From assembly GCA_030065575.1 (NCBI GenBank), contig JASJDZ010000005.1, forward strand, positions 1,114 through 65,113: DNA of 64,000 bases, read 5' to 3'. This DNA comes from Acidimicrobiia bacterium (lineage in GTDB: Bacteria; Actinomycetota; Acidimicrobiia; Spongiisociales; UBA5794). The translations under genes were made by a program, and so were the position numbers. How positions within the stretch are numbered: position 1 is the stretch's first letter; each line of letters opens with the position of its first letter. The notes under the pieces are model-generated. The model was given only the letters and a program-made list of their open reading frames with translations. It was not told the DNA's origin and ran no database searches. Of the stretch, positions 21,861 through 64,000 are shown piece by piece.

Positions 21861-23141
21861 ATGCGCAGACGGTTCCTCTTCTCGGTCCTGGCTTCGGATC
21901 TCATTGCTCTCGTCGTCGCCGTGCTCCTGGGCTCGGTGATCACGTTTGGCGAGCCGATTCCGTGGCTTGCGACACGATCCGATCAGAACGTGTGGCCGAT
22001 GCTGGGCCTGCTCTTTGGCGGTGCCTTGCTCGGGTCTTACACCAGCCTTCGGATGTGGGTACAGGGCGCACCACGGCCTTCCTACGGACGGGCGCTGGCG
22101 ATCGTCTCGATCGCTGCTGCATTCACCGCTCTCGGTATTGCCTTCGGCCGCCCTTCTTATTGGTCGCGGGCATATCTGGCTACAACAATCGGCCTCTGGC
22201 TTGTCGGTGCTGTGGTCCACCGCTACCTCCGCCGCCGCCGACCGTGGGCCGAGGATCTCGTCATTGTCACGGGGGAGAAGGGCCTTGTTGAGGACCTGCG
22301 TGACGCTGAGCACACCAATGTCTTGGAGGTATACGATCCCGCCGGCGAGCCTCCGGTTGAAGTCGATGTGAACTCGACGCTGATCGTTGATCTCCGGCCG
22401 GTGATGTCAGATCGGATGGCTCAGTTTGTCTCGTCGTGGAATCTGGCGGGTTACCCGGTTCGGGCGCTATCGACGGTATACGAGGAATACACCGGCCGGC
22501 TACCGATGGTCCACCTGGCCGAGGGATGGGAGTTGTCGGCTCCGGTCAGTCGAAATGAGTACGCAGGCTTCAAGCGGGGGATCGATACCGTTCTGGTGCT
22601 CTTGACCTCTCCGTTGTGGATTCTGCTGGCGGCCTCGATATGGATTGCCGTCCGGCTCGACTCGAAGGGCCCGGCCATCTACCGGCAGGATCGGATGGGG
22701 CGTGATGGTGAGCAATTCACTCTCTACAAGTTCCGGACGATGGTGCTCGATGCTGAGGCCGACGGGCCCCAGTTCGCTACGCAGAACGACGCCCGGCTCA
22801 CCAACATGGGCCGGCTGCTTCGTCGATTTCGCATTGATGAGATTCCGCAGCTGCTCAACGTCCTGAAGGGTGATCTCAGCCTGGTCGGACCCCGACCCGA
22901 GCGTCCGGTGTTCGTCGACCAGTTCGAGCGCTCGATCCCCTTCTACAGCTACCGGCACCTGGTGCGACCGGGAGTCACCGGCTGGGCTCAGGTGAACTTC
23001 GGCTACGCCGACAACGAGCGAGAAACCGTTGAGAAGCTCACCTACGACCTCTACTACGTCAAGCACATGTCGCCCTGGCTGGATCTGTCGATCCTCGGCC
23101 GGTCGATGTGGACCGTGATGAGCGGATTTGGCGCCAAGTGA
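21861..23141 (+). CDS. Polyprenyl-phosphate sugar-1-phosphate transferase (WbaP/EpsL-type bacterial sugar transferase)
   Basis: Four N-terminal TM spans then the conserved C-terminal domain (KRGIDTVLVLL...PAIYRQDRMGRDGEQFTLYKFRTM...DEIPQLLNVLKGDLSLVGPRPERP). Confidence 0.88.
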   Translation: MRRRFLFSVLASDLIALVVAVLLGSVITFGEPIPWLATRSDQNVWPMLGLLFGGALLGSYTSLRMWVQGAPRPSYGRALAIVSIAAAFTALGIAFGRPSYWSRAYLATTIGLWLVGAVVHRYLRRRRPWAEDLVIVTGEKGLVEDLRDAEHTNVLEVYDPAGEPPVEVDVNSTLIVDLRPVMSDRMAQFVSSWNLAGYPVRALSTVYEEYTGRLPMVHLAEGWELSAPVSRNEYAGFKRGIDTVLVLLTSPLWILLAASIWIAVRLDSKGPAIYRQDRMGRDGEQFTLYKFRTMVLDAEADGPQFATQNDARLTNMGRLLRRFRIDEIPQLLNVLKGDLSLVGPRPERPVFVDQFERSIPFYSYRHLVRPGVTGWAQVNFGYADNERETVEKLTYDLYYVKHMSPWLDLSILGRSMWTVMSGFGAK

Positions 23142-23169
23142 GTTGGACCCGCCATCCGGCGGGCCCAAC
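23142..23169. terminator. Bidirectional GC-rich hairpin between convergent genes (12-bp stem with one mismatch, 4-nt loop; no U-tract)
   Basis: GTTGGACCCGCC-ATCC-GGCGGGCCCAAC starts 1 nt after the transferase stop and ends 24 nt before the stop of the opposite-strand S-layer-like gene. Confidence 0.45.
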
Positions 23170-23192
23170 TGCATCGTCGATCGATTATCCAG

Positions 23193-26156
23193 CTACGGTC
23201 GAAGGTCCGCGGCCCGTTGCAGGAAGGCGGCCATCTGGCCCCGGGTCACAAATGAGTTCGGGCAGAACTTGGTGTTGCCCTCTGCGGGGTTGCAGCCCTT
23301 GGTGATCCCGGCAGTCGCCAGCTTGTCGATGTCGTTCTCGAAGATCGAGGTGTCGTCATCGATGAAAAGGTTGCCTGCGCCCGCATCGGTCAGCTTGAGG
23401 GCTCTGACCAAGAACGCGGCCATCTGGCCCCGGGTCACGAATGAGTTCGGGCAGAACTTGGTGTTGCCCTCTGCGGGGTTGCAGCCCTTTGTGATCCCTG
23501 CCGTCGCCAGCTTGTCGATATCGAACCTGAAGATCGACGTGTCATCATCGATGAACAGGTCGCCGGCACCGCCGTCGGTGAGGCCCAGGAAACGGACCAG
23601 GAATGCCGCCATCTGTCCTCGCGTGACGTTGGCAAGCGGACAGAACGAGGTGCCATCCTGGGTGCATCCCTTCGTGACGCCTTCCTCCGCCAACCACAGG
23701 ATGTTGTCGACGAAGATGCTGCCTTCGATGTCGCCCATCACGGTGAAGTCGATGAAGAAGGCGATGCGATCGTTGCCCTGGTTGAGGTCATCACCAACAC
23801 GAGCCCAGATGATGTAGTTGCCACCTTCGGTGGGGGTGAACTCGAAGGTGTCCTCCGTGCCGAGAATCCCTGGGACCTCGACGAAGTCCTTCAACACCCG
23901 CCATTCGTAGGTGGGCTCACCAGAGCTGCTGTTAGTGATGGCCTCGAATGTCGCCGTGACTCCCGGGGCACCGAACGACGGCCCTTCGATGCTGACCTCG
24001 AGCTCGTCGGAGTCGGTGATGTTGACCACGACACTATCGACGGCAATGGGGCTGAAATTCGGATCTGTTGTCGTGACTGCGTGCGTGATCGAGACCGAGT
24101 GGATGTCCGGTTCCTCGATGTTGTCCTGTACTCCTGTTACCGAGAACTCCTGGAACACGTCCCAGGTGCCCGGGGTGAACGTGAGACTTGCCGGAGTGAC
24201 TGCGATCTGGTCAGAGTCGAACGAAACGGTGACGGTCACGTTGGCGGCAGGCTCAGCGTCGAGCACCACCCGGTATGTGTCGGCGATGCCGCCCTCGATA
24301 ACGTCAGTTGACCCAAGGGTCTCGGTGATCGTGACACCGGCCTCATCGTCATCCTCGATGGTGACTGTCACCGCCTGGTCGTCGGCGACGCCTCCGTAGC
24401 CGCCGCCGCTTGCCGAGTGGTTGATCGTTCCGGTTTGCTGCCCGTCGATGATGTCGTCGGGGTTGGCCGCGATCTCTACCGTCTGCACAACGTTGTAGTC
24501 CCCGGAGTCAAAGGTGAGCGGTGTGCTGGTGACGATGCTGAACTCTCCGCCTCCGGATGTGATCGAAAGCGTGACCGTGACTGTGCCGCTCGGCATGGTG
24601 GTGAGAACGACTCCGTAGGTGCCGTTCGTCCCGTCCTCGTTTGCAGTCGGGGCGCCGACGAGGCTGATCGCAGGTGTCTCGTTGTCGATGATCGTCACAT
24701 CCACATCGTCGATCGACAGAGACCCCGTGTAGTTGGGATCGCTTGGCGACGAGGCGGAATGCTCGATGGTCCCGCTAGTTGTGCCGTCGGCCACCAGGTC
24801 ATCGTCGGCCGAGACAGTGACCGTGATCGGGTTGTCCCAGTTCGTGTCGTCGAAGTCCAGAGTGGAGTCGTTGACGCTGAACTCGCCACCGTTCGTAAGC
24901 GACAGTGTGATCCGCACGTCGTCTACGGGCTCGCTGGTCAGTTCCACCTCATAGGTTGCGTTGCTGCCGTTCTCTGTGACCGAGACCGCAGTGGGAGTGA
25001 TCGTCACGCCGGCATCATCGTTGTCGGTAATGGTGATGCCGACATCTGCGAAGTCTCCGATTCCGTAGTTGCCGTCACCGGATGCCGCTGATAGTGAGAT
25101 GTTGCCGTTGGCTCCGTCGTCGTCGATGTCATCATCGACGGCCGTGACCGTGACACTCTGTGCGATGAACCAGTCAGCGTCGGTGAAGGTGAGCGTGCCA
25201 AGCCCTCCAATCGTGGAGGCGGCCGTTGCCTGCACGTTGTCTGAGCTGATTGTGATCACGACGTTGGCGGTCGGTTGGCTGGTGAGAACGACTGTGAAGT
25301 CGTCTGTTCCGCCCTCTGTCGCTGCGGTGGAACCATCCGACTCAACAACACTTATGCCCGCCGTGTCGTCGTCGGTGATGGTTGCGGTGCCGGTGGCTTT
25401 GCTGATGGTGGCGTTCGATGGGGAGGACAGGTCAACATCAAACGTCTCGACACCCTCGGCAATCTGGTCGTTGGTGAGGGTGATGACGATGGTGTCGGTG
25501 GTGGCTCCTGAACCGATTGAGATGGTGCCGGTGTCGGCGGTGTAATCGGCTGGTGAGGTTGCGGTTCCGTTGGAGGTGGCCCAGTTGGCGGTGACCGTTT
25601 GGGTTGTTGCTCCGGTGCGGGTCACGGTGAACGTTGCAGTTCCGTCGTTTTCGTCGACAGCTATGTCATTGATCGCAATCGACGGAGTATCACTCGCATC
25701 TGTGATTGTGACGGTGTGCGAAGCGTGTGTGCCGATCGTGGCACCACTTGGGGACGTCAGGGTGAGAATGATGGTCTCACCTGGATCGAAGGTGGAGTCA
25801 TCCACGAGAGAGATCACAACATCGTGTGTCGCGCCGCTGGCGGGCGATCCCGATGCAAGAAACTCAACGGCGGTTCCGGAGATTGTGTAGTCCCCGGGAT
25901 CATCCGCCGAACCGCTCACCGACACCGTGGCGGTCACATCACCTGAAAACGAGGTGTCGTAGGTCAGCGTGACGGGAACCGTATACGTCCCACCTCCGAC
26001 GTCCTCGGCGACGCTCGAGGAGTTGGTGGCGAAGAAGATGGACTCGTTAGCGGCCCCCGCTACAGGCGCGTTGAAGCTAACGGCGAGGAGGGAAGCGACT
26101 AGTGACATCACGGCCACCAGAACGATCCGACGGTTGGTGAGTGACAACTGATTCAT
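23193..26156 (-). CDS. Secreted S-layer-like protein: signal peptide, about 6-7 Calx-beta-like repeats, PKD-like domain, three C-terminal SLH-like domains
   Basis: MNQLSLTNRRIVLVAVMSLVASLLAVSFNAPVAGA signal. Repeated ...GTATSPADYT...DDxxxEGxETF-type units. Three repeats of DKLATAGITKGC...FCP...VTRGQMAAFL. GAGGAG SD 8 nt upstream of the ATG. Confidence 0.85.
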   Translation of the reverse strand: MNQLSLTNRRIVLVAVMSLVASLLAVSFNAPVAGAANESIFFATNSSSVAEDVGGGTYTVPVTLTYDTSFSGDVTATVSVSGSADDPGDYTISGTAVEFLASGSPASGATHDVVISLVDDSTFDPGETIILTLTSPSGATIGTHASHTVTITDASDTPSIAINDIAVDENDGTATFTVTRTGATTQTVTANWATSNGTATSPADYTADTGTISIGSGATTDTIVITLTNDQIAEGVETFDVDLSSPSNATISKATGTATITDDDTAGISVVESDGSTAATEGGTDDFTVVLTSQPTANVVITISSDNVQATAASTIGGLGTLTFTDADWFIAQSVTVTAVDDDIDDDGANGNISLSAASGDGNYGIGDFADVGITITDNDDAGVTITPTAVSVTENGSNATYEVELTSEPVDDVRITLSLTNGGEFSVNDSTLDFDDTNWDNPITVTVSADDDLVADGTTSGTIEHSASSPSDPNYTGSLSIDDVDVTIIDNETPAISLVGAPTANEDGTNGTYGVVLTTMPSGTVTVTLSITSGGGEFSIVTSTPLTFDSGDYNVVQTVEIAANPDDIIDGQQTGTINHSASGGGYGGVADDQAVTVTIEDDDEAGVTITETLGSTDVIEGGIADTYRVVLDAEPAANVTVTVSFDSDQIAVTPASLTFTPGTWDVFQEFSVTGVQDNIEEPDIHSVSITHAVTTTDPNFSPIAVDSVVVNITDSDELEVSIEGPSFGAPGVTATFEAITNSSSGEPTYEWRVLKDFVEVPGILGTEDTFEFTPTEGGNYIIWARVGDDLNQGNDRIAFFIDFTVMGDIEGSIFVDNILWLAEEGVTKGCTQDGTSFCPLANVTRGQMAAFLVRFLGLTDGGAGDLFIDDDTSIFRFDIDKLATAGITKGCNPAEGNTKFCPNSFVTRGQMAAFLVRALKLTDAGAGNLFIDDDTSIFENDIDKLATAGITKGCNPAEGNTKFCPNSFVTRGQMAAFLQRAADLRP
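23227..23519 (-). repeat. Intragenic tandem duplication: two 104-bp copies (23227..23330 and 23416..23519), 100/104 identical, period 189 bp, encoding SLH repeats 3 and 2
   Basis: Aligned by eye. Differences at only 4 positions. Confidence 0.85.
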
Positions 26157-26226: not shown

Positions 26227-27948
26227 TCACCCCGCTGCCCGATGCAAGAACGCGGCCATTTGCTCTCTTGTGACTAGCGAACGTGGACAAAACTCAGTGT
26301 TGGCGGGCGGATTGCACCCTTTGGTGATTCCGGCGGCGGCGAGTTTCGCAATGTCGTCCTCGAAGATCGATCCATCGTCGTCGATGAACTGGTTGCCACC
26401 GTTGTCGGTCAAGGCATACGCCCGCACCAGAAACGCCGCCATCTGCTCTCTGGTGACTTTGGCGTTGGGACAGAACTTGGTGTTGCCCTCGGCCGGATTG
26501 CACCCTTTGGTGATGCCGGCGGCGGCGAGTTTCGCAATGTCGTCCTCGAAGATCGATCCATCGTCGTCGATGAACATGTTGCCGCCACCGTCGTCGGTGA
26601 GCCCCAGCACCCGCACCAGAAAGGCTGCCATCTCCCCACGGGTCACTGTTGACTCCGGGCAGAACCTCGTGTTGTGGGGCGGATTGCACCCCTTGGTGAC
26701 GTCCTCGGCCTCCAACCACACGATGTCGGTGATGAAGGCACTGGCGGCAATGTCGATGAACGGCAGGGTGTTGCCCGGGTCGCCGATCGCCACTACAAAG
26801 CCGGAACCGCTTCTGCTGATCACCTCGACGGTGGTTCCATCGAGCGTGACGCTTTCGCCGACCTGGAGGACGTGGCCGACCCCGTTCGGGCTCGGCGGTG
26901 CCTGCGTCTGATCGCGGTAGATGCCGGGGCAGGGGTAGTTGAACGACGGGCAGCGATGGTCGACGAGGTAGACCTCCACTCCTTCCCACTCTCCGGGAAT
27001 CGGGTCATAAGTGCTACTGGTTCGGGCGCCCAGGGTGTAGAAGACGCCATCGGTGCCCGTCAAGACGGCGACCATCTGTGTACCAGCCCGATCAAATGGC
27101 TGAAGTTCAACTTCTTCGTATGCGGCGCCGGCAATGACCACATCGCCTGGATCTACCCAGCCCGATTGGTACCGGTTGAACGCCAACGTCCCGTAGGGGA
27201 GAGGTTCGGTCCAACCTCCCAGAGTCTCGTTGCCGCTCATTAGGTCGAGAGGATTGTCGTATTCCGACTGGCCGGAGTTGGAATGCGGCCAGTGCAGCGT
27301 ATGGCCCACTTCGTGTACGGCCACCGAAGGGAACCCAGACAGGGCGTTGGCCCCCACGATCGCATACCGCCCATTGTCCGGGAACGTGGCGCTGATCCAC
27401 TCGCAGTTGCCCTGGTCGAGGCAGATGATCCCCGGAGATGCATATCCACCGCCGGTAATCGAATCGATTATCAACAGCCCTTCCGGAGAACCGACCGTGG
27501 TGTATGCGGGACTCGACCCCTGGAACCCGCCCAGGCAATTGGGATCACCGAGCAGAGTGCCACCGGCCGAGAAGCTGATTTCGTAGCGACCGCCCGAGAT
27601 TGCCGAGTAGTAGTCGGCCATACCGTTCTCGAGATCGGCGATCGCCTCGTTCATGGTGTAGCCCGTATCGCCGCACAACCACACCTCGAAATGGTCAGTG
27701 TCGAGCGAATACCGCTGTACAAAGGGGAGCTTGGGGACGAGGCCGAGCGGGTCGGAGTCAAGGACGCCCTGGGTGCCTATTGCGTCGATAGTGCCGGGCG
27801 GAGCGACGATGGGTGCTTCCCAATCGAGGGGAGCAATATCAGGTTCCAGGTGTGCGCTCGATGCTGCCGCAGATGCGGGCGCGGACGTTGTCAGTCCAGC
27901 AGGAAGAACCAGCAGCAGTGCCGCGGCAAACCCAATCCATCGATGCAT
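26227..27948 (-). CDS. Secreted zincin (HEXXH) metalloprotease-like protein with three C-terminal SLH-like domains
   Basis: ATG at 27948 gives signal peptide MHRWIGFAAALLLVLPAGLTTSAPASA. VAVHEVGHTLHWPHS...DLMSG (resembles the M6/InhA-type arrangement from memory). Three SLH-like repeats (VTRGEMAAFL, VTREQMAAFL x2). Confidence 0.8.
   Translation of the reverse strand: MHRWIGFAAALLLVLPAGLTTSAPASAAASSAHLEPDIAPLDWEAPIVAPPGTIDAIGTQGVLDSDPLGLVPKLPFVQRYSLDTDHFEVWLCGDTGYTMNEAIADLENGMADYYSAISGGRYEISFSAGGTLLGDPNCLGGFQGSSPAYTTVGSPEGLLIIDSITGGGYASPGIICLDQGNCEWISATFPDNGRYAIVGANALSGFPSVAVHEVGHTLHWPHSNSGQSEYDNPLDLMSGNETLGGWTEPLPYGTLAFNRYQSGWVDPGDVVIAGAAYEEVELQPFDRAGTQMVAVLTGTDGVFYTLGARTSSTYDPIPGEWEGVEVYLVDHRCPSFNYPCPGIYRDQTQAPPSPNGVGHVLQVGESVTLDGTTVEVISRSGSGFVVAIGDPGNTLPFIDIAASAFITDIVWLEAEDVTKGCNPPHNTRFCPESTVTRGEMAAFLVRVLGLTDDGGGNMFIDDDGSIFEDDIAKLAAAGITKGCNPAEGNTKFCPNAKVTREQMAAFLVRAYALTDNGGNQFIDDDGSIFEDDIAKLAAAGITKGCNPPANTEFCPRSLVTREQMAAFLHRAAG
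26311..26575 (-). repeat. Intragenic tandem duplication: two 79-bp copies (26311..26389 and 26497..26575), 78/79 identical, period 186 bp, inside the SLH region
   Basis: Aligned by eye. Single T/G difference. Confidence 0.85.
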
Positions 27949-32256: not shown

Positions 32257-32298
32257 CCAGTTCTCGTCCGGCAGGTGGTTCGGGCTCGAAGAACGGGT

Positions 32299-38472: not shown

Positions 38473-38510
38473 GGGACGTCCGCGCTCTGCTCTTGCACCG
38501 AACTCAGGTC

Positions 38511-39636: not shown

Positions 39637-39659
39637 GAGAGAAGAGTTGGGAAGAGGGT

Positions 39660-46920: not shown

Positions 46921-46989
46921 TTGGCGTCCTCCGTCATCGACCGGATCCGGTCTGGGCCGCATGGTAATCCCGGACAAGCCGAGGCTCGG

Positions 46990-47005
46990 GCCTGCTCGGG
47001 CAGGC
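46990..47005 (-). terminator. Short GC hairpin GCCTGC-N4-GCAGGC 11 nt downstream of the acyltransferase stop
   Basis: 6-bp stem read directly. No U-tract. Weak call. Confidence 0.25.
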
Positions 47006-47016
47006 GACACGTGAGG

Positions 47017-52324: not shown

Positions 52325-52384
52325 CGCTCTCAACTCCCATGATCGTGGCCCTAACCGGGACCCGCAGGCGACAGATGCCTGAGA

Positions 52385-52403
52385 CACAACAATCCTAGTT
52401 GTG
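52385..52403. promoter_or_regulatory. Inverted repeat CACAAC-N7-GTTGTG whose spacer carries a minus-strand TAGGAT -10-like hexamer, in the 104-bp gap upstream of pseI
   Basis: Read directly. Locally AT-rich. Confidence 0.3.
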
Positions 52404-52428
52404 CAGCCGGTTTCTGGCCCCGGCGTCG

Positions 52429-54431: not shown

Positions 54432-54492
54432 GAGGTCTCGATTGTTGTTGGGGGTAGCTCGGTGCCGTTAGGAATCGCTGCAGGGTGCCGGT

Positions 54493-56716: not shown

Positions 56717-56719
56717 GAT

Positions 56720-57865
56720 CTAGGCGCCAACCGCGGCACCGACCATCTCCACAACCCGGTCTTGTTCCTCATCGGTCAGGCCGGGCCACATCGGAAGGGA
56801 CAGAAGCCCTGCATAGGCCGTCTCGGCAACGGGGCACAAGCCCGGCTCGTAGCCAAGATTGCGGTAGTAGGAGTGGAGGTAGACGGGAAGGTAGTGAACG
56901 TTGACGCCGATTCCAGCAGCCCGCATGTTCTCGAAGGCCGAAGCCCGGATGGCAGCACTGTCGGGGCCCTCGAAGATGACCGGGAAGAGGTGCCAGGAGG
57001 CGGTACGGTCCTCCGGCTCGGTGAGGGTCCGAAGTCCGTCGAAATCGGCAAACGCTGTGTTGTAGCGGGCCGCGATCCGGCGCCTGGCCTCTACCCAATC
57101 GGGGAGCTTGGCGAGCTGCGAAATCCCGAGCGCACAGTTCAGATCAGGGAGCCGGTAGTTGAACCCCAGCGCAGCCATGTCGTACGCCCAGGTTCCCTGC
57201 TCCTCACGCTGGCGGAAGTCGGTCTTGATCCCGTGATTGCGGTATTGCCTCATCCGCTCGGCTAGCTCGGGGCTGTCGGTTGTGACCATGCCGCCTTCGG
57301 CCGTAGTGAGATGCTTGACCGGATGGAAGCTGAAGATGGAGAGGTCGGCGATACTGCCGATCGGTCGCCCGCGGTAGGTCCCACCCGGTGCGTGGCACGC
57401 ATCCTCGATGAGCAGCAGATCATGCTGCTCGCATAGCGACCGGAGCTCGTCGAGGTCGCACGGCACTCCCGCAAAGTCAACGGCAACAATGGCCCTGGTG
57501 CGGTCGGTGATGAGCGAGGCAACGTGATTTGGGTCGATCGTCAGGGTGTCGCTGCGCACATCGGCGAATACAACGTCGGCACCTACGTAGCGAGCCATGT
57601 TGGCGCTCGCAGCAAAGGTCATCGCGGCAACGATCACCTCGTCTCCGGGCCCGAAACCAGCAGCCAGAGCAGCGACGTGGAGGGCCGCCGTGCCGTTGGA
57701 AACCGCAACACCGTATTGGGCACCAACGAAGTCGGAGAACGCCTCCTCGAACTGTGCCACCGCCGGCCCGGTTGTGAGCCAGTCGCCGCGCATCACCGCA
57801 GCTACGGCCTCGATGTCCGCTTCGTCGATGATCTGTCGTCCGTAGGGGACGAAGCGCTTGGTCAT
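56720..57865 (-). CDS. pseC: DegT/DnrJ/EryC1 family aminotransferase (PseC-like)
   Basis: ATG 57865 (ATGA overlap with pseB stop). FSFHPVKHLTTAEGG PLP-lysine segment. Confidence 0.9.
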   Translation of the reverse strand: MTKRFVPYGRQIIDEADIEAVAAVMRGDWLTTGPAVAQFEEAFSDFVGAQYGVAVSNGTAALHVAALAAGFGPGDEVIVAAMTFAASANMARYVGADVVFADVRSDTLTIDPNHVASLITDRTRAIVAVDFAGVPCDLDELRSLCEQHDLLLIEDACHAPGGTYRGRPIGSIADLSIFSFHPVKHLTTAEGGMVTTDSPELAERMRQYRNHGIKTDFRQREEQGTWAYDMAALGFNYRLPDLNCALGISQLAKLPDWVEARRRIAARYNTAFADFDGLRTLTEPEDRTASWHLFPVIFEGPDSAAIRASAFENMRAAGIGVNVHYLPVYLHSYYRNLGYEPGLCPVAETAYAGLLSLPMWPGLTDEEQDRVVEMVGAAVGA

Positions 57866-58866
57866 CCGATCTCCGTCGCGATGAGGTCCCGGAGTTGCTC
57901 GACAGTCAGAAACACCTTGTTGGCGTCGCTGCTGTAGTGGAATCCCGGCTCCGTCGGTGTGCCGGGCGAGGTACTGCTCGTCAGCCGGAACTCCTCTTCG
58001 TCCCACTGTCGATACGAGGGCTTGATGACGTAGTAGTCGTCGAACTCAACGGTCGACAGTGAGTCCGTTCGCGTGATGAGGTCCTCGTGAACCTTCTCGC
58101 CGGGCCGGATGCCCACGATCTCGATCCTGGCGTCGGGATCTACGGCTTCGGCGACGTCGAGGATCCGGTAGGAAGGGATCTTGGGGACGAACAACTCGCC
58201 GCCCCACATACGCTCGAGACAGTCAATGACAAAGTCGACGCCCTGTTGCAGGGTGATGTTGAAACGGGTCATCTCGGGGTCGGTGATGGGGAGGACACCG
58301 GTCTTGGCCTTCTCGATGAAGAATGGGATCACCGAACCACGGCTGCCCATCACGTTGCCGTAGCGCACGGCGGCAAACCGGATGTCACGATTGCCGCGGT
58401 GGTTATTGGCGGCGATGAAGAGCTTGTCCGACGCCAGCTTGGTCGTCCCGTATAGGTTGATCGGTGCGGCCGCCTTGTCGGTGCTGAGGGCGATGACTCG
58501 CTGGACGCCGTTGTCCATCGACGCGTTGATGACGTTCTCGGCACCGAGGATGTTTGTCTTGACGGCCTCGAAAGGGTTGTACTCGGCAGCAGGCACCTGC
58601 TTCATCGCAGCGGCATGCACTACTACGTCGACTCCCTCCAGGGCCTTGCGCAGCCTCTTCTCGTCGCGAACGTCGCCGATGAACCAGCGCAGCGTCGAAT
58701 CGTGAGACGAGAACGGTTCGAGGTGTTGCATCTCGAACTGCTTGAGTTCATCGCGGCTGTAGATGATCACCTTGCTGGGGGAAAACCGGGTCAGCGCGGT
58801 AGCGGCAAACCGCTTTCCGAACGAGCCGGTGCCGCCGGTGATCAGGATATTCTTACCGTTGAGCAT
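57862..58866 (-). CDS. pseB: UDP-N-acetylglucosamine 4,6-dehydratase (inverting), PseB-like (alternative ATG at 58890)
   Basis: MLNGKNILITGGTGSFGKRF, YGTTK catalytic motif. TATAGT 9 nt upstream of ATG 58866. Confidence 0.9.
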   Translation of the reverse strand: MLNGKNILITGGTGSFGKRFAATALTRFSPSKVIIYSRDELKQFEMQHLEPFSSHDSTLRWFIGDVRDEKRLRKALEGVDVVVHAAAMKQVPAAEYNPFEAVKTNILGAENVINASMDNGVQRVIALSTDKAAAPINLYGTTKLASDKLFIAANNHRGNRDIRFAAVRYGNVMGSRGSVIPFFIEKAKTGVLPITDPEMTRFNITLQQGVDFVIDCLERMWGGELFVPKIPSYRILDVAEAVDPDARIEIVGIRPGEKVHEDLITRTDSLSTVEFDDYYVIKPSYRQWDEEEFRLTSSTSPGTPTEPGFHYSSDANKVFLTVEQLRDLIATEIG

Positions 58867-58875
58867 GATTTGCCC

Positions 58876-58881
58876 ACTATA
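58876..58881 (-). promoter_or_regulatory. -10-like hexamer TATAGT, 9 nt upstream of pseB ATG 58866
   Basis: Plus strand ACTATA. Same geometry as TATAAT upstream of the ABC permease gene. Confidence 0.4.
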
Positions 58882-58916
58882 CGCCACCATCGGAGACCAG
58901 CCGGCTCGGTGCCCCC

Positions 58917-60848
58917 TCAGAAACGATCGCGCAGCCGGCGGACTCCTCGCACCAGCGGCTCGGCGGCGCGGCTGAGCGTCAGCGCAGCGCGCACAGACCG
59001 ACGATTGCGAAGTCGGTCGTATCGCTCTCGCTCCTGGGTTCTGACCTCATCCCGGGTGTCGGTGACCCGCTTCTGGGTGGCATAGAGAGCATCTCGCGTA
59101 TCGAAGTACTGCTTCATCCAGCCGGCAGCGGCCATGGCCGTTGCCCTATTGCGGGACCAGACCGGTTCCGGGCAGGAGTCCAGCCGGGGCAAGTCCAGTC
59201 GCGGATCTGTCCAGAGGGACAGGAACCGTTCCCGGTTCTTCCGCCAGAGCCCCTTCCAATCGTCGAGCTTGGTTCCGGCGGTTCCCTTGGAAACGTGGGT
59301 GACCAGCACTCGTTCGTCGATGACGACGTCCAGGTCATTCACCCACACGCGAAAAGCGAGATCGACATCCTCGCCGCTCGCCACCTCGTAGTACTCGGGG
59401 AAGCCGCCAAGAGCGCGCGCCGTGTCCGTCTTCATCACCCACACCACCGCTCCCGGGGGCGCCGAGAAGGGAGGAATCGCATAGGTTCGGGTTCCCGGCT
59501 CGGTGAGCACGTTGATCGGATTTGAAGCGGCTGTGACTGCCGGCGCGACGATTCCAGCCTTCGGGTGCCGGGCAAGGGTCTCGAGTACCTGACTCGCCCA
59601 GTTGGCCCGGAAGACAGTGTCGTTGTTGATGAAGGCAACGTATTCCCCGGTCGCGGCCGCCAGCCCCTGGTTCATGCCTACGGCGAAGCCCAGGTTGGTC
59701 TCATTGAGAATCGCCGTGTCGGCGGCTTGTTCGGCGTAGGAGCGGGCCACCGGCTGTGAGCCGTTATCGACGATCACGAGCTCGTACTCAACGTCGGTAT
59801 GGAGGCGGAGGCTGGTGACGCACTTCTCGGTGAGTAGCTTCTGATCCCACGGGAGTACTACCAAGGACAGAGTCGGATTGGCGGGCGGGGTGCGAAGCAG
59901 TGGGCCGGTATGGCGGCGGTGGTCGATCTCGCCTCTGCCGGCTGCTTCGAGGATTCGCTCGAGGTCGGCGGCGCTCTTCGACCACGAGAAGCGTTCCCGA
60001 ACTATGTCCAAGCCCCCTTGGCGCAGTCGCTCCCGAAGTGCCGGATCACGACGGATTCTGGCTATGGCATCGGCCATGGCTCGAGGATCGCGGGGCGGCA
60101 CCACCAGTGCTGTCTCGCCGTCGATCGCGTAGTCCCGGCATCCGCCGTTGTCCGTGGTTACCAGGGGGGTCCCACAGGCGAGGGACTCGATTCCCGGTTG
60201 TCCGAATCCCTCGAAGTCGCTGCCAACAACGAACACCTCGGCTTTGCCGTATTCCTCTGCCATCGCGCTCTGGGGAAGATCCTTGCCTGCGTACTTCTCG
60301 ACCGGCAGGTCCAGGATTCGGGCCGCTTCGAGGATCACGTCGTGGCCTTTCCACGGGCGAGTGTCGCCCATGGTCAGGATGGGGTACTCCTTGGGCACAT
60401 CGACACTGTGGAAGTGGTCGGGGTTGATGCCTCCCGAGAAGGTCTCTGGGCGTATCCCGGTCTCCCGCTCGAGCATGTCTGCGGTCCATGTGCTGTTGGC
60501 CAGGAAGAGATCCACATCCTTGTGCAGGCTTTCCCAGCTGCCCTCCTTGTCGTACAGGCGGGCGTAGTGCAAAGCGAAGTAGACCGTCCGTCCGGCATTG
60601 GGGAACGTGTCGAGGTAATGCCAGTCCGGCTCGTTGTTGTAGATGACGAAGTCAAGGGTGTCCTCGTTGACCTCCTCGAGGTGCTTCACAGCACCGGCAC
60701 AGGGCATCCAGTCACAGCTGGCGGGGACGTTGGGCGGAACGAAGTAGGTGATCTCGTGGCCGCGATCGACAAGGTGGTTTCCGAGTTCAACAACTCGCCG
60801 AATACCGCCAAAACGTCCCATATGAGGCTCGATGAAGCCGATTCGCAT
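58917..60848 (-). CDS. Two-module glycosyltransferase: N-terminal GT4 (EX7E) plus GT2 module, C-terminal coiled/basic tail
   Basis: GGIRRVVELGNHLVDRGHEITYF and EGFGQPGIE (EX7E). LSLVVLPWDQ...ELVIVDNGS...FAVGMNQG GT2 motifs. Tail RNRRSVRAALTLSRAAEPLVRGVRRLRDRF. Confidence 0.85.
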   Translation of the reverse strand: MRIGFIEPHMGRFGGIRRVVELGNHLVDRGHEITYFVPPNVPASCDWMPCAGAVKHLEEVNEDTLDFVIYNNEPDWHYLDTFPNAGRTVYFALHYARLYDKEGSWESLHKDVDLFLANSTWTADMLERETGIRPETFSGGINPDHFHSVDVPKEYPILTMGDTRPWKGHDVILEAARILDLPVEKYAGKDLPQSAMAEEYGKAEVFVVGSDFEGFGQPGIESLACGTPLVTTDNGGCRDYAIDGETALVVPPRDPRAMADAIARIRRDPALRERLRQGGLDIVRERFSWSKSAADLERILEAAGRGEIDHRRHTGPLLRTPPANPTLSLVVLPWDQKLLTEKCVTSLRLHTDVEYELVIVDNGSQPVARSYAEQAADTAILNETNLGFAVGMNQGLAAATGEYVAFINNDTVFRANWASQVLETLARHPKAGIVAPAVTAASNPINVLTEPGTRTYAIPPFSAPPGAVVWVMKTDTARALGGFPEYYEVASGEDVDLAFRVWVNDLDVVIDERVLVTHVSKGTAGTKLDDWKGLWRKNRERFLSLWTDPRLDLPRLDSCPEPVWSRNRATAMAAAGWMKQYFDTRDALYATQKRVTDTRDEVRTQERERYDRLRNRRSVRAALTLSRAAEPLVRGVRRLRDRF

Positions 60849-60908: not shown

Positions 60909-63899
60909 TCACATCGGCTGCCGCGGCTCAATCTCTTCGATCAACTCCATAATGCGCCGGGCCCTGGCGGCGAAGGTGTGGTCCTGCAACACGATGTCCT
61001 GTGCCCGTTGCATTCTCACGGCGAATCCGTCCCGATCATCGTGGAGGCGGTCCAGCAGATCCTGAAGTTGCTCGGCTGAGTCGAACGTCGGGATCAGGTC
61101 GCCGAATACTGTCTCGAGTCCCGCCACCGGGTCGGTGAAGACGATCCCTCCGGCCGCAACGATGTCAAAGACCCGGTTCGAGATGAAGCCCAACCGCGCC
61201 ATGTCCGGCCAGTGGTCGTTGAGATTGACACCGGCCGAGGCGTAGAGAGCGCCGAGACGCTCGTTGGGGAAGTGCTCGCCTGCCCAGTAGCTCTCGGGGA
61301 GGATGCCGTCCCAACCCTGCCCGTAGACGCGCAGGGGCGCATTGATCGCCAGTGCATGCTCGATTGCCCGGCGCGGCCGCCCCCTTGTGTTGCCGACGAA
61401 TAGCACCTCGGTAACGATCTCGGCGTCAGGCTCGGGCGGGGACGGGTCGGGTCGGGCTGCCTGGTGCATCACTTCGACCGGCACCGCAACGCGGGAGCGC
61501 AGTTCATCCGCATACGGTTCTGACGCAACCAACACCAGGTCGTATGCCTCGCACTCCGTTTCCGATACCTGTTCGGGATGGGAGATGATCCAGAGGATGT
61601 TCTTGTGGGCCGGCTTGGGGACGTACGTTCCCAAACCGCGGATGTGAATGACTACGTCGACGCTGTGCGACCCGGGCAACTCCCAGTCGGACTGGTATTG
61701 GATAGCGGGGTTGGCTCCTTCGCCGGCGAGGCTGGCGGCGAGGGCCTCGGCGAAGTAGGTGTCACCCCAGAACCGGGATGCGAGACGCCCCGGGGTACCG
61801 ATCTTGAGTGCGATTCGTGGCCGGGACAGCGCGGTGAGGGCTGCTTTGCGAATGTCGCCTACCCGCCGAGTGTAGGTGTGGCGATCCAGCACGGTGCGCC
61901 GGAGCTTCTGGACCGTCTGCAGGCGCAGCGCTTCGTCCTTCAGGTACTGATCGAGCAGTTCCCTCTGGTGTTTTTCGTGCTCATAGACCGGCAACTCTCC
62001 GGCGAAGATCTCCTCTGACCCCGCTGCATTGTCGGTCAAGACCAGCGCTCCTGTCGCCGTCGCGTCGAAGATGGGTGCGCTCAGCACTCCCTCGGTGTTC
62101 GCCGAATTAGTGGCAGCGTCGATGATGACCTTGCTCGAGGCGTACACATCGGGAAGATCCTCATATCGGACGGGCCCCCGGCTGTACCGGTTCAGTTTGG
62201 GGACGGCTGCCCATCCTCGTCCGTAGATGCTGAACCTCTCGTGGGCGTGCACGATTGCCTTCTCTAGCCCGTAGCGAGGGCTGCCGTGATGGTTCGCCGT
62301 CGCGGCGAAGTCGTTCTCAAATGCAGGGTCGGCCGGATGGGGGAAGAAGCGCTGCTCGTTGGTGGCCAGGGGGAGCGGTTCTGTCGCGGCGATCCCAGCA
62401 GCAACGAGTAGGGCGGCCGATGCCTGGCTTCCCGGCACATACACGTTGTAGTGCCGGAACCATGGTTGCACCATCCAGTCGCTCGTAGCACCGTGGATCC
62501 ACGCAAGCTTGAGAGCTCCCGACGGAGCCTTGCGGACGTCGTAGTCGGCGTGGAGGCTGATCACTATCGATACGTCGTCCCCGATCTCGTACCAGCCATC
62601 GTTGTGTGCCTCCGCCAGAACGACCTCATATCCATCGGCCTCGAGTGCGTTGCCGAGTTCGTGAGCAACCTCCCAGTCACTCGATCCGCCCGCGGGATCC
62701 TTGCGTGTGGTCGTTATTGCGACGGTGGTGGGGACCTGATCCCCGGTGTCCTCGGGAACCAATTGTGCGGCAAGCAGGGAGCGAGAGAGCAGTGGATCCC
62801 ACTTCTCCGCAAATCGCCGGGTGTTGGCGCTGTGTGCGGCGGGCTGAGCCGATTTCTCTCCCAGTGCGGCCCTTCTGTAGCGGAATAGAGCCGCTTGGCC
62901 GACTACGGCGACTTCGTACCCTCGTTGTCCCATGGCGAGGGTCAGGTCAACACCTTCTAGCCCATTGACGAAACCCTCGTCGATAGCGCCCAGTTCCCGC
63001 ACCAGTGCCGTGCCGCTCAGGATGCAGCCGAGGGGCAACGCCGGGACTGGTTGGGAGTCGACGAAGTCTTCCGGGGAAGGTGCTGCGGTGGTTCCGATGG
63101 AGGATGTCACCGGGGCCGGTCTCGTGTCTGCTGTTGGCCGTCTGAGGTGGAATGCGGCCCCCTTCTCATAGCCGGCGACGACAGCCGCGTCGATAGGTTG
63201 TTCCGGATCTGGGGAGAGGTCGACGAGCACGGGGGCAACGGCGGCCCGTTTCGGGTTGGCCTGCAGGTCAGCGACGAGTGCGCCGAGCCATCCCGCACTG
63301 ATCGGGGCGAGATCGCCGCGCATCAGAAGGACAAACTCACCAGTTGCTTCCGCCACGCACAGGTTGACCGCTCGGGCGTATGACATGGCGGCATTGCCTG
63401 CTACCACCCGGATTGGGAAGCCCCAGTCCTCCGTCATCGGCTCGGCCGCCTCGTTTGGATAGCAGTCGGCCAGCACCACCTCAAAGGATCTGTATGCGGT
63501 TGAGTTGCGCAGTCCCGATAGGAACCTGTCCCTGCTGTGCCCGCCATCGCGATCGACCATGACGATCGAGACCAGCGGCCCAGATGTCGGCCCGCTGGTG
63601 GGCAAGATGCCGCTCAGTCGGGATGCCAGATCTCCCGCAGTGGTGGCGGTCGAATCCTGACCCCGAGGTTGTCTGCGGGCGAGGCGGACCACCGGCTTGA
63701 CGAGCTCGGCAAGGCGTAGCGCCATGCGGACGGATCGACGATTGCTCAGGTCGGCCGTTCTGCGCTGCTGCTTGGCCAGTTCGGCTTCCAGATTTGCCGC
63801 ACGATCCTCGAGTTCGGCACGCTTTTGCCGTTCCCGGCGCAGTGCGGCCCGGAGCGCCTTTTCGCTCTCGGCCCCGGATCCAGATTCGGCTTCGGTCAT
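60909..63899 (-). CDS. Three-module glycosyltransferase: N-terminal coiled coil and basic motif, GT2 module, two CgeB-like (DUF3880/Glyco_trans_1_2-like) GT-B modules
   Basis: N-terminal heptad-rich EKALRAALRRERQKRAELEDRAANLEAELAKQQ. LVSIVMVDRDG...FEVVLADC GT2-like. PIFDATATGALVLTD and RVFDIVAAGGIVFTD paralogous motifs. Confidence 0.85.
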   Translation of the reverse strand: MTEAESGSGAESEKALRAALRRERQKRAELEDRAANLEAELAKQQRRTADLSNRRSVRMALRLAELVKPVVRLARRQPRGQDSTATTAGDLASRLSGILPTSGPTSGPLVSIVMVDRDGGHSRDRFLSGLRNSTAYRSFEVVLADCYPNEAAEPMTEDWGFPIRVVAGNAAMSYARAVNLCVAEATGEFVLLMRGDLAPISAGWLGALVADLQANPKRAAVAPVLVDLSPDPEQPIDAAVVAGYEKGAAFHLRRPTADTRPAPVTSSIGTTAAPSPEDFVDSQPVPALPLGCILSGTALVRELGAIDEGFVNGLEGVDLTLAMGQRGYEVAVVGQAALFRYRRAALGEKSAQPAAHSANTRRFAEKWDPLLSRSLLAAQLVPEDTGDQVPTTVAITTTRKDPAGGSSDWEVAHELGNALEADGYEVVLAEAHNDGWYEIGDDVSIVISLHADYDVRKAPSGALKLAWIHGATSDWMVQPWFRHYNVYVPGSQASAALLVAAGIAATEPLPLATNEQRFFPHPADPAFENDFAATANHHGSPRYGLEKAIVHAHERFSIYGRGWAAVPKLNRYSRGPVRYEDLPDVYASSKVIIDAATNSANTEGVLSAPIFDATATGALVLTDNAAGSEEIFAGELPVYEHEKHQRELLDQYLKDEALRLQTVQKLRRTVLDRHTYTRRVGDIRKAALTALSRPRIALKIGTPGRLASRFWGDTYFAEALAASLAGEGANPAIQYQSDWELPGSHSVDVVIHIRGLGTYVPKPAHKNILWIISHPEQVSETECEAYDLVLVASEPYADELRSRVAVPVEVMHQAARPDPSPPEPDAEIVTEVLFVGNTRGRPRRAIEHALAINAPLRVYGQGWDGILPESYWAGEHFPNERLGALYASAGVNLNDHWPDMARLGFISNRVFDIVAAGGIVFTDPVAGLETVFGDLIPTFDSAEQLQDLLDRLHDDRDGFAVRMQRAQDIVLQDHTFAARARRIMELIEEIEPRQPM

Positions 63900-63901
63900 C
63901 G

Positions 63902-64000
63902 TTAGATCTCGGGCTCGACTTCGGGTCGTTCGTTTTGGTGCGTGGCAGCTACCGCATCGGGCTTCCCCCGAGGTTCGTAGTATGCCGCAATTCCGACCAG
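63902..64000 (-). CDS. 3-prime end of a further minus-strand gene running out of the window (32 codons + TAA)
   Basis: Reverse translation LVGIAAYYEPRGKPDAVAATHQNERPEVEPEI-stop. The stop lies 2 nt upstream of the next ATG. Too short for assignment. Confidence 0.4.
   Translation of the reverse strand: MVGIAAYYEPRGKPDAVAATHQNERPEVEPEI

Follow-up and report, generated by a model that had tools for sequence, protein, structure and literature searches.

An envelope-glycan locus with surface-layer homology proteins and a putative variant pseudaminic acid pathway in an Acidimicrobiia bacterium

Gene Content and Limits of the Locus

A stretch of 64,000 nucleotides from an Acidimicrobiia bacterium (assembly GCA_030065575.1, contig JASJDZ010000005.1, positions 1,114 to 65,113 of the forward strand; hereafter, the window) carries, from position 21861 to its end, a block of envelope-glycan genes together with the genes of two secreted proteins with surface-layer homology (SLH) repeats. 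Every sizeable open reading frame (ORF) of this block was scanned against Pfam and most ORFs against NCBIfam; PDB searches were also made. A first-pass annotation had described here a dense envelope-glycan locus with ABC export, several nucleotide-sugar branches and post-export modification, and this description is supported. Nearly all the glycan and SLH functions that it named were borne out by the profile and PDB searches, and nine cytoplasmic glycosyltransferase (GT) modules were counted where about eight had been proposed. The features are listed in Table 1.

The first 21 kb of the window contain lysA, a gene for a DUF6311 membrane protein, hom, rho, prfA, prmC, glyA and the atp operon, followed by a PAS histidine kinase gene. 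This order of core genes from lysA to atp is typical for Actinomycetota. The kinase gene (19357-21366) separates atpC from the first gene of the block, which encodes a large polyprenyl-phosphate glycosylphosphotransferase (PGT), so the block does not directly follow the atp operon as had been stated. On the other side, the block extends past base 64000. Two public contigs, L086 (1-5329) and L087 (1784-6909), whose DNA is 100% identical to the window across the overlap, continue with rmlC, rmlB, rmlA and rmlD (250, 430, 415 and 271 bits, all above the NCBIfam equivalog cut-offs) and then a gene for a 532-aa GT2 protein. Deoxythymidine diphosphate (dTDP)-L-rhamnose is therefore a fourth sugar branch, which was invisible to the first-pass annotation. 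The gene starts of the pseudaminic acid (Pse) operon were taken from L086.

The G+C-content of the window is about 62%. The G+C-content at third codon positions is 0.756 in the block and 0.750 in the core genes, and the tetranucleotide correlations of the block are r = 0.91–0.97. Scans of the window found no tRNA genes, Rfam matches, integrase or transposase. Since the composition of the block is that of the core genes, it is not a recently acquired island; horizontal acquisition, implied by the earlier term "island", was rejected on composition, tRNA and mobile-gene checks. The closest genomes are metagenome-assembled genomes of uncultured Acidimicrobiaceae/Acidimicrobiia; homologues are few and mostly metagenomic, and the lineage is thinly sampled.

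The short start/stop overlaps of 1–11 nt, reported earlier as support for operon organization, are real (e.g., 29017/29020, 37870/37873, 40596/40599, 44118/44121, 45035, 46141/46144, 53310/53313 and 57862/57865). The block as a whole is not a single operon, consisting of at least ten transcription units on alternating strands. Three of its genes have no evident relation to glycans, namely those for the DUF427 protein, a small membrane protein and an Fpg/Nei DNA glycosylase. An ORF of 316 aa at 21363-22313 on the reverse strand shares about 450 nt with the PGT gene, has only a sub-threshold SRPBCC match and is probably spurious over its full length.

Table 1. Predicted features of the block, with positions in the window.
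Feature	Position	Strand	Evidence
PGT, WbaP/WsaP-like; predicted initiator	21861..23141	+	Bac_transf E 1.9e-61; TIGR03025
SLH987, secreted, Calx-beta and three C-terminal SLH repeats; candidate S-layer/adhesin protein	23193..26156	-	Calx-beta E 3e-24; SLH E 6.5e-11
SLH605, secreted, HEVGH motif and three C-terminal SLH repeats	26227..27948	-	SLH E 8e-10
GT2a glycosyltransferase	28061..29020	+	Glycos_transf_2 E 2.7e-15
MT-GT1079, methyltransferase (MT) and GT protein; predicted elongation and chain terminator/ruler	29017..32256	+	Methyltransf_23 E 9e-23; Glyco_trans_1_2 E 1.6e-14; Glyco_trans_1_4 E 2.7e-13
DUF427 protein, no evident glycan role	32275..32745	+	PF04248 E 2e-30
AlgX-like SGNH protein; predicted extracytoplasmic O-acetyltransferase partner	32735..34090	-	ALGX E 6e-19; N-terminal transmembrane (TM) segment predicted
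MBOAT acyl translocase, DltB/PatA/AlgI-like	34092..35510	-	MBOAT E 1e-34
cysD, cysN, cysC: sulfate adenylyltransferase and adenosine phosphosulfate (APS) kinase; phosphoadenosine phosphosulfate (PAPS) synthesis	35703..38472	+	CysD 454 bits, CysN 562 bits, APS_kinase E 7e-60
Small membrane ORF, 109 aa, 3 TM segments	38508..38837	+	weak DUF1475 E 1.3e-3
Fpg/Nei DNA glycosylase, unrelated housekeeping	38839..39636	-	H2TH E 1.9e-20; Fapy_DNA_glyco E 5e-11
wzm-wzt ABC exporter	39595..41342	+	ABC2_membrane; ABC_tran
DUF6044 polytopic membrane protein, ~12 TM segments; candidate GT-C-type transferase	41349..43076	+	PF19510 E 6e-82
GT2b, GtrB/ArnC-type polyprenyl-phosphate glycosyltransferase	43069..44121	-	PDB 5EKP E 1.5e-53
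CDP-6-deoxyhexose branch	44118..47010	-	TIGR02623; TIGR02622
Glc-1-P cytidylyltransferase	46141-46920	-	TIGR02623 337 bits, above cut-off
CDP-Glc 4,6-dehydratase	45035-46144	-	TIGR02622 427 bits, above cut-off
SDR1, short-chain dehydrogenase/reductase (SDR)	44118-45035	-	
AT3 (Acyl_transf_3) membrane O-acyltransferase, first gene of the CDP-sugar/GT2b operon	47017..48093	-	PF01757 E 4e-28
TPR-GT-B, tetratricopeptide repeat (TPR) and GT-B-fold protein; candidate Pse transferase	48377..51262	+	TPR Pfam matches, N-terminal; AlphaFold2 and Foldseek, C-terminal
Pse operon, seven genes from PseB to PseI	51272..58890	-	NCBIfam equivalogs
PseB	57862-58890	-	501 bits (cut-off 408)
PseC	56720-57865	-	457 bits (cut-off 423.5)
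PseF	56000-56716	-	297 bits (cut-off 206)
Extended PseG	54493-55989	-	238 bits (cut-off 154)
ATP-grasp	53310-54431	-	
SDR2	52429-53313	-	
PseI	51272-52324	-	480 bits (cut-off 340)
GT643, GT4 and GT2	58917..60848	-	Glycos_transf_1 E 8e-23; Glycos_transf_2 E 4e-17
GT996, coiled coil, GT2 and two GT1_2	60909..63899	-	Glyco_trans_1_2 E 2.4e-42, two stretches; Glycos_transf_2 E 3e-5
Start of the divergent region toward rmlC-rmlB-rmlA-rmlD and the 532-aa GT2	63900..64000	+	contigs L086, L087

Chain Synthesis and Export

The PGT scores 311.5 bits with TIGR03025 (cut-off 295.6), and neither the WbaP nor the WcaJ model reaches its cut-off. The nine cytoplasmic GT modules are spread over GT2a, MT-GT1079, GT643, GT996 and the TPR-GT-B protein. 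GT2a demonstrates a weak similarity to rhamnosyltransferases (TIGR01556, E 2.9e-10, below the cut-off), and its gene overlaps that of MT-GT1079 by 4 nt. MT-GT1079 is composed of an S-adenosylmethionine methyltransferase domain (residues 1-190), which matches PDB 3cc8, a coiled coil of about 130 residues (~220-350) and two GT domains, GT1_2 (~420-715) and GT4 (~725-1079). With this set of domains, the protein is predicted to terminate the chain. GT643 (643 aa) ends with a coiled coil and a basic helix. The gene for GT996 is the first of a nine-gene, 12.6-kb operon, in which GT643, PseB, PseC, PseF, PseG, the ATP-grasp protein, the SDR and PseI follow.

A basic amphipathic stretch (…NRRSVR[AM]AL.L…R…R) is located after the coiled coil in the N-terminal part of GT996 (residues 50-78, ~63666-63752). 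A similar stretch, again after a coiled coil, is found at the C-terminus of GT643 (residues 612-640, ~58929-59015), and a related "SNTWRVGRAAW…" stretch follows the coiled coil of MT-GT1079 (residues 352-378). These stretches may be shared membrane- or partner-docking helices.

The exporter was recognized by the Wzm/RfbD (E 8e-13) and Wzt/TagH (E 5.6e-57) models, both below the equivalog cut-offs. The wzm and wzt genes overlap by 4 nt. Wzt, 248 aa long, is a nucleotide-binding domain alone and has no carbohydrate-binding extension of the kind that recognizes the cap in the O9a system. No Polysacc_synt, MOP or Wzy match, which would point to a Wzx flippase or a Wzy polymerase, was found among the ORF products of 21.8-64 kb. 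Both the presence of the Wzm/Wzt pair and the absence of Wzx/Wzy correspond to an ABC-transporter-dependent pathway. No ligase gene, LCP or Wzy_C, was found in the window by Pfam, nor a Wzy_C gene in the next 6.8 kb, which were covered by precomputed Pfam matches and NCBIfam only.

Pseudaminic Acid Genes

PseB, PseC, PseF, PseG and PseI all score above the NCBIfam equivalog cut-offs. The "full pseudaminic-acid-type branch" described earlier holds for these five enzymes, but not for the canonical N-acetyltransferase PseH, in whose place an ATP-grasp protein, an SDR and an extended PseG are found. No PseH or GNAT protein was detected in the window by NCBIfam or Pfam. Searches of Pfam and PDB with the C-terminal extension of PseG (150–200 residues) gave nothing, and the extension does not resemble the GNAT protein of the related locus L089; the idea of a PseH hidden in this extension found no Pfam, PDB or BLAST support.

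A comparison of eight Pse loci indicated two arrangements. The ATP-grasp and SDR pair occurs with a long PseG of 438–498 aa (the window, L002, L088, L102 and L106), whereas GNAT/PseH occurs with a PseG of 338–414 aa (L001, L089 and L107), and the two are mutually exclusive in all eight loci. The replacement of PseH by the ATP-grasp and SDR pair suggests a PseH-independent variant of the pathway, with a predicted non-acetyl acyl group at N7. In two loci, L088 (5651-8382) and L102 (12692-13777), TupA-like ATP-grasp genes of the teichuronopeptide type are located beside the TPR-GT-B/Pse module; such genes are absent from the window.

TPR-GT-B Protein

TPR-GT-B is about 960–1035 aa long and has no TM segment or signal peptide. 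TPR matches in Pfam cover the N-terminal part only. For the C-terminal 535 aa, neither a Pfam family nor a sequence match in PDB was found, a profile search included. An exhaustive search of 1.84 billion representative proteins yielded relatives in only 160 representative clusters. The AlphaFold2 model of these 535 aa, calculated with a 100-sequence alignment, reached a pLDDT of 95.3 and a pTM of 0.93. A model of the full-length protein obtained with 10 sequences, where the pLDDT of the catalytic half was 30–70, was not used. Foldseek matched the C-terminal model to GT-B proteins with E of 7e-8 to 1e-4, including UDP-GlcNAc 2-epimerases, NeuC, polysialyltransferase, MurG, SdgB and WaaA. One histidine, in an LWPHS motif, is invariant in 100 sequences.

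Named members of the family are found in Brevibacterium antiquum and Nocardioides; all organism-named ones are Actinomycetota, and most matches are nameless. Ten members of about 600 aa, nine from Logan/ENA/JGI assemblies and one from NCBI, carry neither an accession nor an informative name (one is a "hypothetical protein" from JGI). The TPR-GT-B gene lies beside Pse genes in six of nine loci (the window, L088, L089, L102, L106 and L107), B. antiquum being among the six. Of the other three, two are of Nocardioides type without Pse genes beside TPR-GT-B, and one is a distant short form in another glycan context. In B. antiquum, a same-strand run of PseB, PseC, PseF, PseG, ATP-grasp, SDR and PseI ends with the TPR-GT-B gene, and PNPT, Epimerase_2, GT4 and further GT genes are located nearby. 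Our literature search found nothing on Pse in the Brevibacterium wall. Two loci of Nocardioides type, L103 (10001-13872) and L106 (10001-21450), have common flanks (Peptidase_M1, NRPS-like, ABC importer, Trypsin/PDZ and DUF5302), and in L106 only, TPR-GT-B is followed by PseI, AT3, SDR, ATP-grasp, PseG and PseF, which makes a presence/absence polymorphism of the Pse genes.

The architecture of the protein is similar to that of FlmG of Caulobacter crescentus, in which the TPR part occupies residues 1-313 and the GT-B part residues 309-596, and which is sufficient for flagellin pseudaminylation (PMC7591256). The N-terminal TPR, the C-terminal GT-B and the genetic link to Pse synthesis are common to both. 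The likeness is one of architecture; FlmG has 596 aa, and the context of TPR-GT-B, a rare family, is a polysaccharide exporter rather than flagella. No flagellar genes were seen in any locus examined. Given the exporter context and the absence of flagellar genes from these loci, TPR-GT-B is proposed as a candidate Pse transferase of the polymer.

Acylation, Sulfate and Sugar Decoration

The MBOAT protein scores below the cut-off of the DltB model, and its gene is 1 nt from that of the membrane-anchored AlgX-like SGNH protein. Such a pair is retained in L090, L092, L094 and L095.

CysD and CysN score above the NCBIfam cut-offs, so the part of the earlier suggestion of sulfate that concerns PAPS synthesis by CysDNC holds, but no sulfotransferase accompanies it in the window. 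No hidden sulfotransferase gene was found there by Pfam, by tblastn with the sulfotransferases of L107 and L005 or by a scan for the 5'-phosphosulfate-binding (5'-PSB) motif, and none was found in the next 6.8 kb, which were covered by precomputed Pfam matches and an NCBIfam scan only. Sulfotransferase-like genes exist in two other loci. One, in L107 (12934-13824; Sulfotransfer_3, 25.7 bits, HRSGTS loop), is adjacent to the TPR-GT-B gene; the other, in L005 (2814-3950; E 6e-16), shares its contig with DUF6044 and is situated about 6 kb upstream of it. L088 also carries, between PseF and PseB, a 69-aa APS-kinase fragment (18017-18226). This fragment is either a remnant linking PAPS genes to the Pse operon or an artefact of the assembly or of a frameshift.

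AT3, Glc-1-P cytidylyltransferase, CDP-Glc 4,6-dehydratase, SDR1 and GT2b are encoded in one operon. As no RfbH/E1 gene is present, the product of the CDP branch is not a 3,6-dideoxy sugar. GT2b matches Synechocystis GtrB (5EKP) over residues 2-308, its full length including the TM hairpin, and ArnC with E 1.7e-28; its two C-terminal TM helices lie within the TM segments 229-294. Because GT2b is the last gene of this operon, a CDP-derived 6-deoxyhexose is its likeliest cargo. The GT2b gene is convergent with that of the DUF6044 protein, in which an invariant R49-x-H51-D52-x-L54-D55 (RxHDxLD) motif follows the first hydrophobic segment. A sequence and profile search of PDB gave no relative of DUF6044, and no mention of it was found in the literature search.

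DUF6044 is spread over many phyla (Bacillaceae, Lachnospiraceae, Bacteroidales, Planctomycetota, Thorarchaeota). Among 85 loci, 38 have a GtrB-like gene within 10 kb of it; of the 48 loci with a flank of at least 5 kb on both sides, 25 have one. In 11 loci, including Priestia megaterium and Geobacillus, the two genes adjoin directly on the same strand, 22–129 bp apart. In the cultured Bacillaceae (L011-L013, L016-L019, L022, L024 and L043; P. megaterium, Geobacillus spp. and Bacillus sp.), the distance to the same-strand GtrB-like GT2 gene is 22–54 bp. These features fit DUF6044 as a candidate GT-C-type enzyme that would use the polyprenyl-phosphate sugar made by GT2b.

The pair resembles the Gtr-type glycosylation systems (GtrA/GtrB/GtrC, CsbB/YfhO and ArnC/ArnT) in having a full-length GtrB/ArnC homologue with two C-terminal TM helices and a large polytopic partner with a conserved acidic motif past the first hydrophobic segment, a pairing that recurs across phyla. 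It differs in that the partner is the uncharacterized DUF6044 and the donor is probably a CDP-derived 6-deoxyhexose instead of UDP-Glc/UDP-GlcNAc. In addition, no GtrA-like flippase was matched in the window, where the small membrane ORF (38508-38837) gives only its weak DUF1475 similarity.

SLH Proteins

Both SLH proteins have signal peptides and match the Pfam SLH family above the gathering cut-off, with three tandem repeats and GITKG or VTKG loops. SLH987 contains 14% Thr and 10.5% Asp. SLH605 features an HEVGH motif of the zincin type (HExxH), which suggests a metalloprotease; its similarity to the M6 and M10 families is not significant (E 0.07–0.1). Should SLH605 be a metalloprotease anchored in the wall, its family would be a poorly described one. 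Its gene is conserved beside that of a large SLH protein in relatives.

The ligand-contacting residues of SLH repeats, Arg43 (the TRAE position) and Gly29 (the GIIxG loop), were defined structurally in SpaA of Paenibacillus alvei, and this definition was applied here (PMC6081394). The TRAE position reads TRGQ in all three repeats of SLH987 and TRGE, TREQ and TREQ in SLH605. As Arg43 and the Gly29 loop are kept in all six repeats, the latter are probably functional binders of an anionic epitope, judging from sequence. The canonical SLH ligand is pyruvyl-ManNAc, which requires pyruvylation by CsaB (PMC6030368). No csaB, tagA or mnaA gene was found in the window by Pfam scans.

Anchoring on a secondary cell wall polymer that is pyruvylated, as in Bacillus anthracis Sap/EA1 and P. 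alvei SpaA, shares with the present proteins the three tandem repeats, the conserved Arg43 and Gly29 loop (GITKG) and an MBOAT and extracytoplasmic acetyltransferase pair nearby, comparable to PatA/PatB (PMC6081394, PMC7759979). The differences, besides the missing CsaB, TagA and MnaA genes, are the replacement of Trp13 with Lys in repeats 2 and 3, a Cys pair in each repeat, and a neighbouring polymer predicted to be acidic via Pse, not pyruvate. In B. anthracis, acetyltransferases of the PatA/PatB group (MBOAT-SGNH type) modify the SLH-binding polymer and affect the retention of SLH proteins (PMC7759979), which makes the conserved SLH/MBOAT/AlgX neighbourhood suggestive. The conserved position of the two SLH genes beside the MT-GT and MBOAT/AlgX operons suggests that their products may dock on the polymer of the cluster. 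Judged by sequence, they may equally bind another polymer or be glycosylated by this one. A literature search on SLH proteins in Acidimicrobiia found nothing.

Conservation in Relatives

Contigs of relatives were compared with flanks of up to 10 kb. A metagenome scan seeded with SLH605 resulted in 12 loci. In L090, L092, L094 and L095, the order MBOAT-AlgX/MT-GT1079-GT2a/SLH605-SLH987-like is kept with 62–89% protein identity; the DUF427 gene is present in L090 and missing in the other three. L091 has GT2a, SLH605 and an SLH987-like gene, with CDP-sugar genes directly after. Orthologues of SLH987 occupy the same position in L091, L094, L090 and L095, and in L092, cysD/cysN adjoin the MBOAT gene.

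The right part of the block is represented in three other contigs. L088 carries Wzm-Wzt and, further on, the TPR protein, PseI, SDR, ATP-grasp, PseG and PseF. In L089, rmlDABC is followed by a GT996-like gene (GT985, an orthologue with 39% identity, between rml and wzm), wzm, wzt, TPR-GT-B, PseF, a second TPR-GT-B, PseG, GNAT, PseI, PseC and PseB. The compact L107, of about 22 kb, contains atpG-atpD, a PGT gene (63% identity), Wzm, Wzt, a GT, the sulfotransferase-like gene, TPR-GT-B and PseB/C/F/G/I; the position of the PGT gene behind the atp operon thus recurs here. The content of L107 and L089 indicates that the PGT, exporter, TPR protein, Pse, rhamnose and GT996-type genes travel together. 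Linkage of the genes in relatives, by which the first-pass annotation proposed to check its reading, is kept within the MBOAT-AlgX/MT-GT1079-GT2a/SLH unit (four to five contigs) and within the Wzm/Wzt-TPR-Pse unit (L088, L089 and L107); the two units were not met together on one relative's contig within these flanks.

Comparison with Known Systems

The locus is a variant of the ABC-transporter-dependent pathway for wall or S-layer glycans, and its overall design is known. The closest analogue is the slg cluster of Geobacillus stearothermophilus NRS 2004/3a, which comprises sgsE, wsaA-F, wsaP, wzm, wzt and rmlABCD (PMC2943079). A surface-protein gene beside glycan genes, a WbaP-type PGT unusually combined with Wzm/Wzt, a complete rml set and tightly packed genes with overlapping stops and starts are found in both. 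A further likeness, by description rather than by sequence alignment, is a large soluble enzyme with a methyltransferase and two GT domains: the trifunctional WsaE, with its N-terminal O-methyltransferase, elongates and caps the chain (PMC2943079). The slg-type combination of a PGT, Wzm/Wzt, a WsaE-like MT-GT-GT protein and rmlABCD next to a surface-protein gene is therefore present.

The locus differs from the slg cluster in the absence of a Wzy_C oligosaccharyl:protein transferase, three further donor branches (a cytidine monophosphate (CMP)-Pse derivative, CDP-6-deoxyhexose and PAPS), a Gtr-type post-export pair and two O-acylation systems. Its G+C-content is native, in contrast to the lowered values reported for slg clusters, the host belongs to Acidimicrobiia, and the SLH triplet is at the C-terminus of the surface proteins. 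Since the defining transferase of slg is missing, the locus was not filed as an slg cluster.

The O-antigen systems of Escherichia coli O8/O9a and Klebsiella O12 (WbdD, WbbB) are similar in the processive cytoplasmic synthesis by multidomain GTs, the Wzm/Wzt export and a terminating domain, here a predicted one, that is set apart from the polymerizing modules by a coiled coil serving as a molecular ruler. Unlike them, the present system is predicted to initiate the chain with a PGT instead of WecA, its methyltransferase is fused to the GTs themselves, and its Wzt lacks the O9a-type cap-recognizing domain. Because the host is a monoderm, WaaL and Lpt steps do not occur.

Pse-containing wall polymers have been described in Actinomycetes. 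The earlier statement that no characterized actinobacterial polymer has this combination of components may hold for the full combination, but the design closely parallels the Geobacillus slg cluster (PMC2943079).

Proposed Pathway and Alternative Explanations

The observed domain identities, gene order, conservation in relatives and fold of the C-terminal domain of TPR-GT-B lead us to consider the block and the rml genes as a chromosomal, vertically inherited, multi-operon locus that makes one decorated cell-wall glycopolymer by an ABC-transporter-dependent route. The probability of this reading is, in our estimate, slightly above one half (about 0.55).

From these observations we infer the substrates, the order of the steps and the link to the SLH proteins as follows. 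The precursors would be dTDP-L-rhamnose (RmlABCD), a CDP-6-deoxyhexose (RfbF/RfbG-type enzymes and SDR1), a CMP-pseudaminic-acid derivative and PAPS (CysDNC). The Pse derivative would be formed by PseB, PseC, PseG, PseI and PseF, with the ATP-grasp ligase and SDR replacing PseH. The large PGT would start the chain on undecaprenyl phosphate, and the nine cytoplasmic GT modules would extend a rhamnose-containing chain, TPR-GT-B being the best candidate for the addition of Pse. The chain would be capped by the N-terminal methyltransferase domain of MT-GT1079, which a coiled coil of about 130 residues would keep at a distance from the GT modules, similarly to WsaE, WbdD and WbbB. The lipid-linked polymer would leave via Wzm/Wzt, with no cap-binding domain on Wzt. 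Outside the membrane, a sugar loaded by GT2b onto polyprenyl phosphate, probably the CDP-derived 6-deoxyhexose, would be transferred to the polymer by DUF6044, and MBOAT/AlgX-like and AT3 would O-acylate it. A ligase encoded elsewhere would attach the polymer to peptidoglycan or protein. The neighbouring SLH987 and SLH605 would be wall-anchored exoproteins.

Several points weigh against this pathway. The transcription units are numerous and on alternating strands, with three unrelated genes between them, and the two conserved sub-blocks were met on separate contigs. No LCP or Wzy_C ligase, sulfotransferase or GtrA-type flippase is encoded; with the ligase, the sulfotransferase and the canonical PseH all missing from the block, its earlier description as a self-contained system does not stand. 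CysDNC could serve sulfur assimilation, and the donors assigned to all GTs are putative. As to TPR-GT-B, the top structural matches are UDP-GlcNAc 2-epimerases, which have the GT-B fold and are not transferases, and the TM-scores are low (0.3–0.56); the GT-B fold also houses non-transferases, which is a caveat for the transferase assignment.

The most viable alternative, though still an unlikely one, is a composite locus in which two or more independent envelope systems lie side by side. A methyl-capped rhamnan (GT2a/MT-GT1079), acetylated by MBOAT/AlgX, would then exist next to a separate Pse polymer, with TPR-GT-B and GT996/GT643 as its synthetic enzymes and Wzm/Wzt as its exporter; GT2b/DUF6044 and the CDP sugar would decorate some other glycan in a Gtr-type manner, and CysDNC would act in ordinary sulfur assimilation. 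The number of transcription units, the interposed DUF427, Fpg/Nei and small ORF genes and the separation of the left and right sub-blocks in relatives all agree with such a composite, as do the occurrence of the Pse/TPR module alone in B. antiquum and a Nocardioides-like genome and that of DUF6044, unaccompanied by Pse genes, in many phyla (only 12 of 85 loci have PseI nearby). However, a single exporter and a single initiating transferase are present for all GT modules. L107 joins the PGT, Wzm/Wzt, TPR protein and Pse genes within 22 kb, and L089 joins rml, the GT996-like gene, Wzm/Wzt and Pse. The CDP-sugar genes directly after the SLH987 orthologue in L091, cysDN beside MBOAT in L092 and the sulfotransferase-like genes in the L107 and L005 versions likewise argue for one system.

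Glycosylation of S-layer proteins, as encoded by the slg clusters of Geobacillus and Paenibacillus, is a weaker contender and seems rather improbable. Here the exported lipid-linked polymer would be moved to Ser/Thr/Tyr of SLH987 and/or SLH605 and not to peptidoglycan. The parallel with the G. stearothermophilus cluster (PMC2943079), the 14% Thr of SLH987 and the SLH genes beside GT2a/MT-GT1079 in four to five relatives are what one would expect in this case. The oligosaccharyl:protein transferase (Wzy_C; WsaB/WsfB) is, however, missing from the window (Pfam) and the next 6.8 kb (precomputed Pfam and NCBIfam), the DUF6044-GtrB pairing points to a sugar transferase and not an oligosaccharyltransferase, and the core system, including the Pse/TPR module, has no SLH gene in the surrounding 20 kb in L107 and B. 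antiquum.

Brevibacterium is a non-motile genus. Cytoplasmic protein O-pseudaminylation (e.g., of flagellin) by an FlmG-like TPR-GT-B, whose TPR part would bind the protein and whose GT-B part would transfer Pse in a module unrelated to any polysaccharide, is very improbable: it would explain the same two-part architecture as in C. crescentus FlmG (PMC7591256) and the lack of a TM segment or signal peptide, but it is at odds with the absence of flagellar genes from the examined loci, the family's presence in Brevibacterium in a wall-polymer context with PNPT, Epimerase_2 and GT4, the position of the TPR-GT-B gene between wzm/wzt and Pse genes in L089 and L107, and the absence of any named proteobacterial FlmG among 79 named-database matches.

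Outside the block, the DUF6311 protein (544 aa; 1297-2931, forward strand; PF19830, E 7.6e-18), encoded between lysA and hom, belongs to an uncharacterized family, and an envelope-related role for it is a guess.

Significance

For envelope glycobiology, the claim of a whole cluster making one wall polymer is an ordinary one; more valuable are three leads, namely the family of TPR-GT-B proteins, the pairing of DUF6044 with GtrB and the variant of Pse synthesis with an ATP-grasp protein. A bolder interpretation holds that TPR-GT-B proteins are a new family of Pse transferases, that a Pse/rhamnose wall polymer, whose acidity comes from Pse carboxylates and not from pyruvate ketals, is the natural ligand of the Cys-paired SLH variant of these Acidimicrobiia and provides CsaB-independent anchoring, that DUF6044 is a new GT-C family and that the ATP-grasp/SDR pair is a PseH-independent route to N7-acyl Pse. 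In its entirety, we regard this interpretation as unlikely.

Waters, soils and sediments harbour Acidimicrobiia in abundance, but members of the class are rarely cultured, and their cell envelope is essentially uncharacterized. For a wall polymer of this class, the locus provides a list of parts that is concrete and testable. To our knowledge, very few Pse transferases have been described (Maf, FlmG and KpsS1); as a member of the TPR-GT-B family is found in the cultured B. antiquum, a candidate of a further kind is testable now. The mutual exclusivity of the ATP-grasp and SDR pair and PseH/GNAT predicts a route to a non-acetyl N7 substituent. DUF6044, for its part, gains a specific hypothesis, that of a GT-C partner of GtrB-like enzymes, for which the cultured Bacillaceae would be a tractable place.

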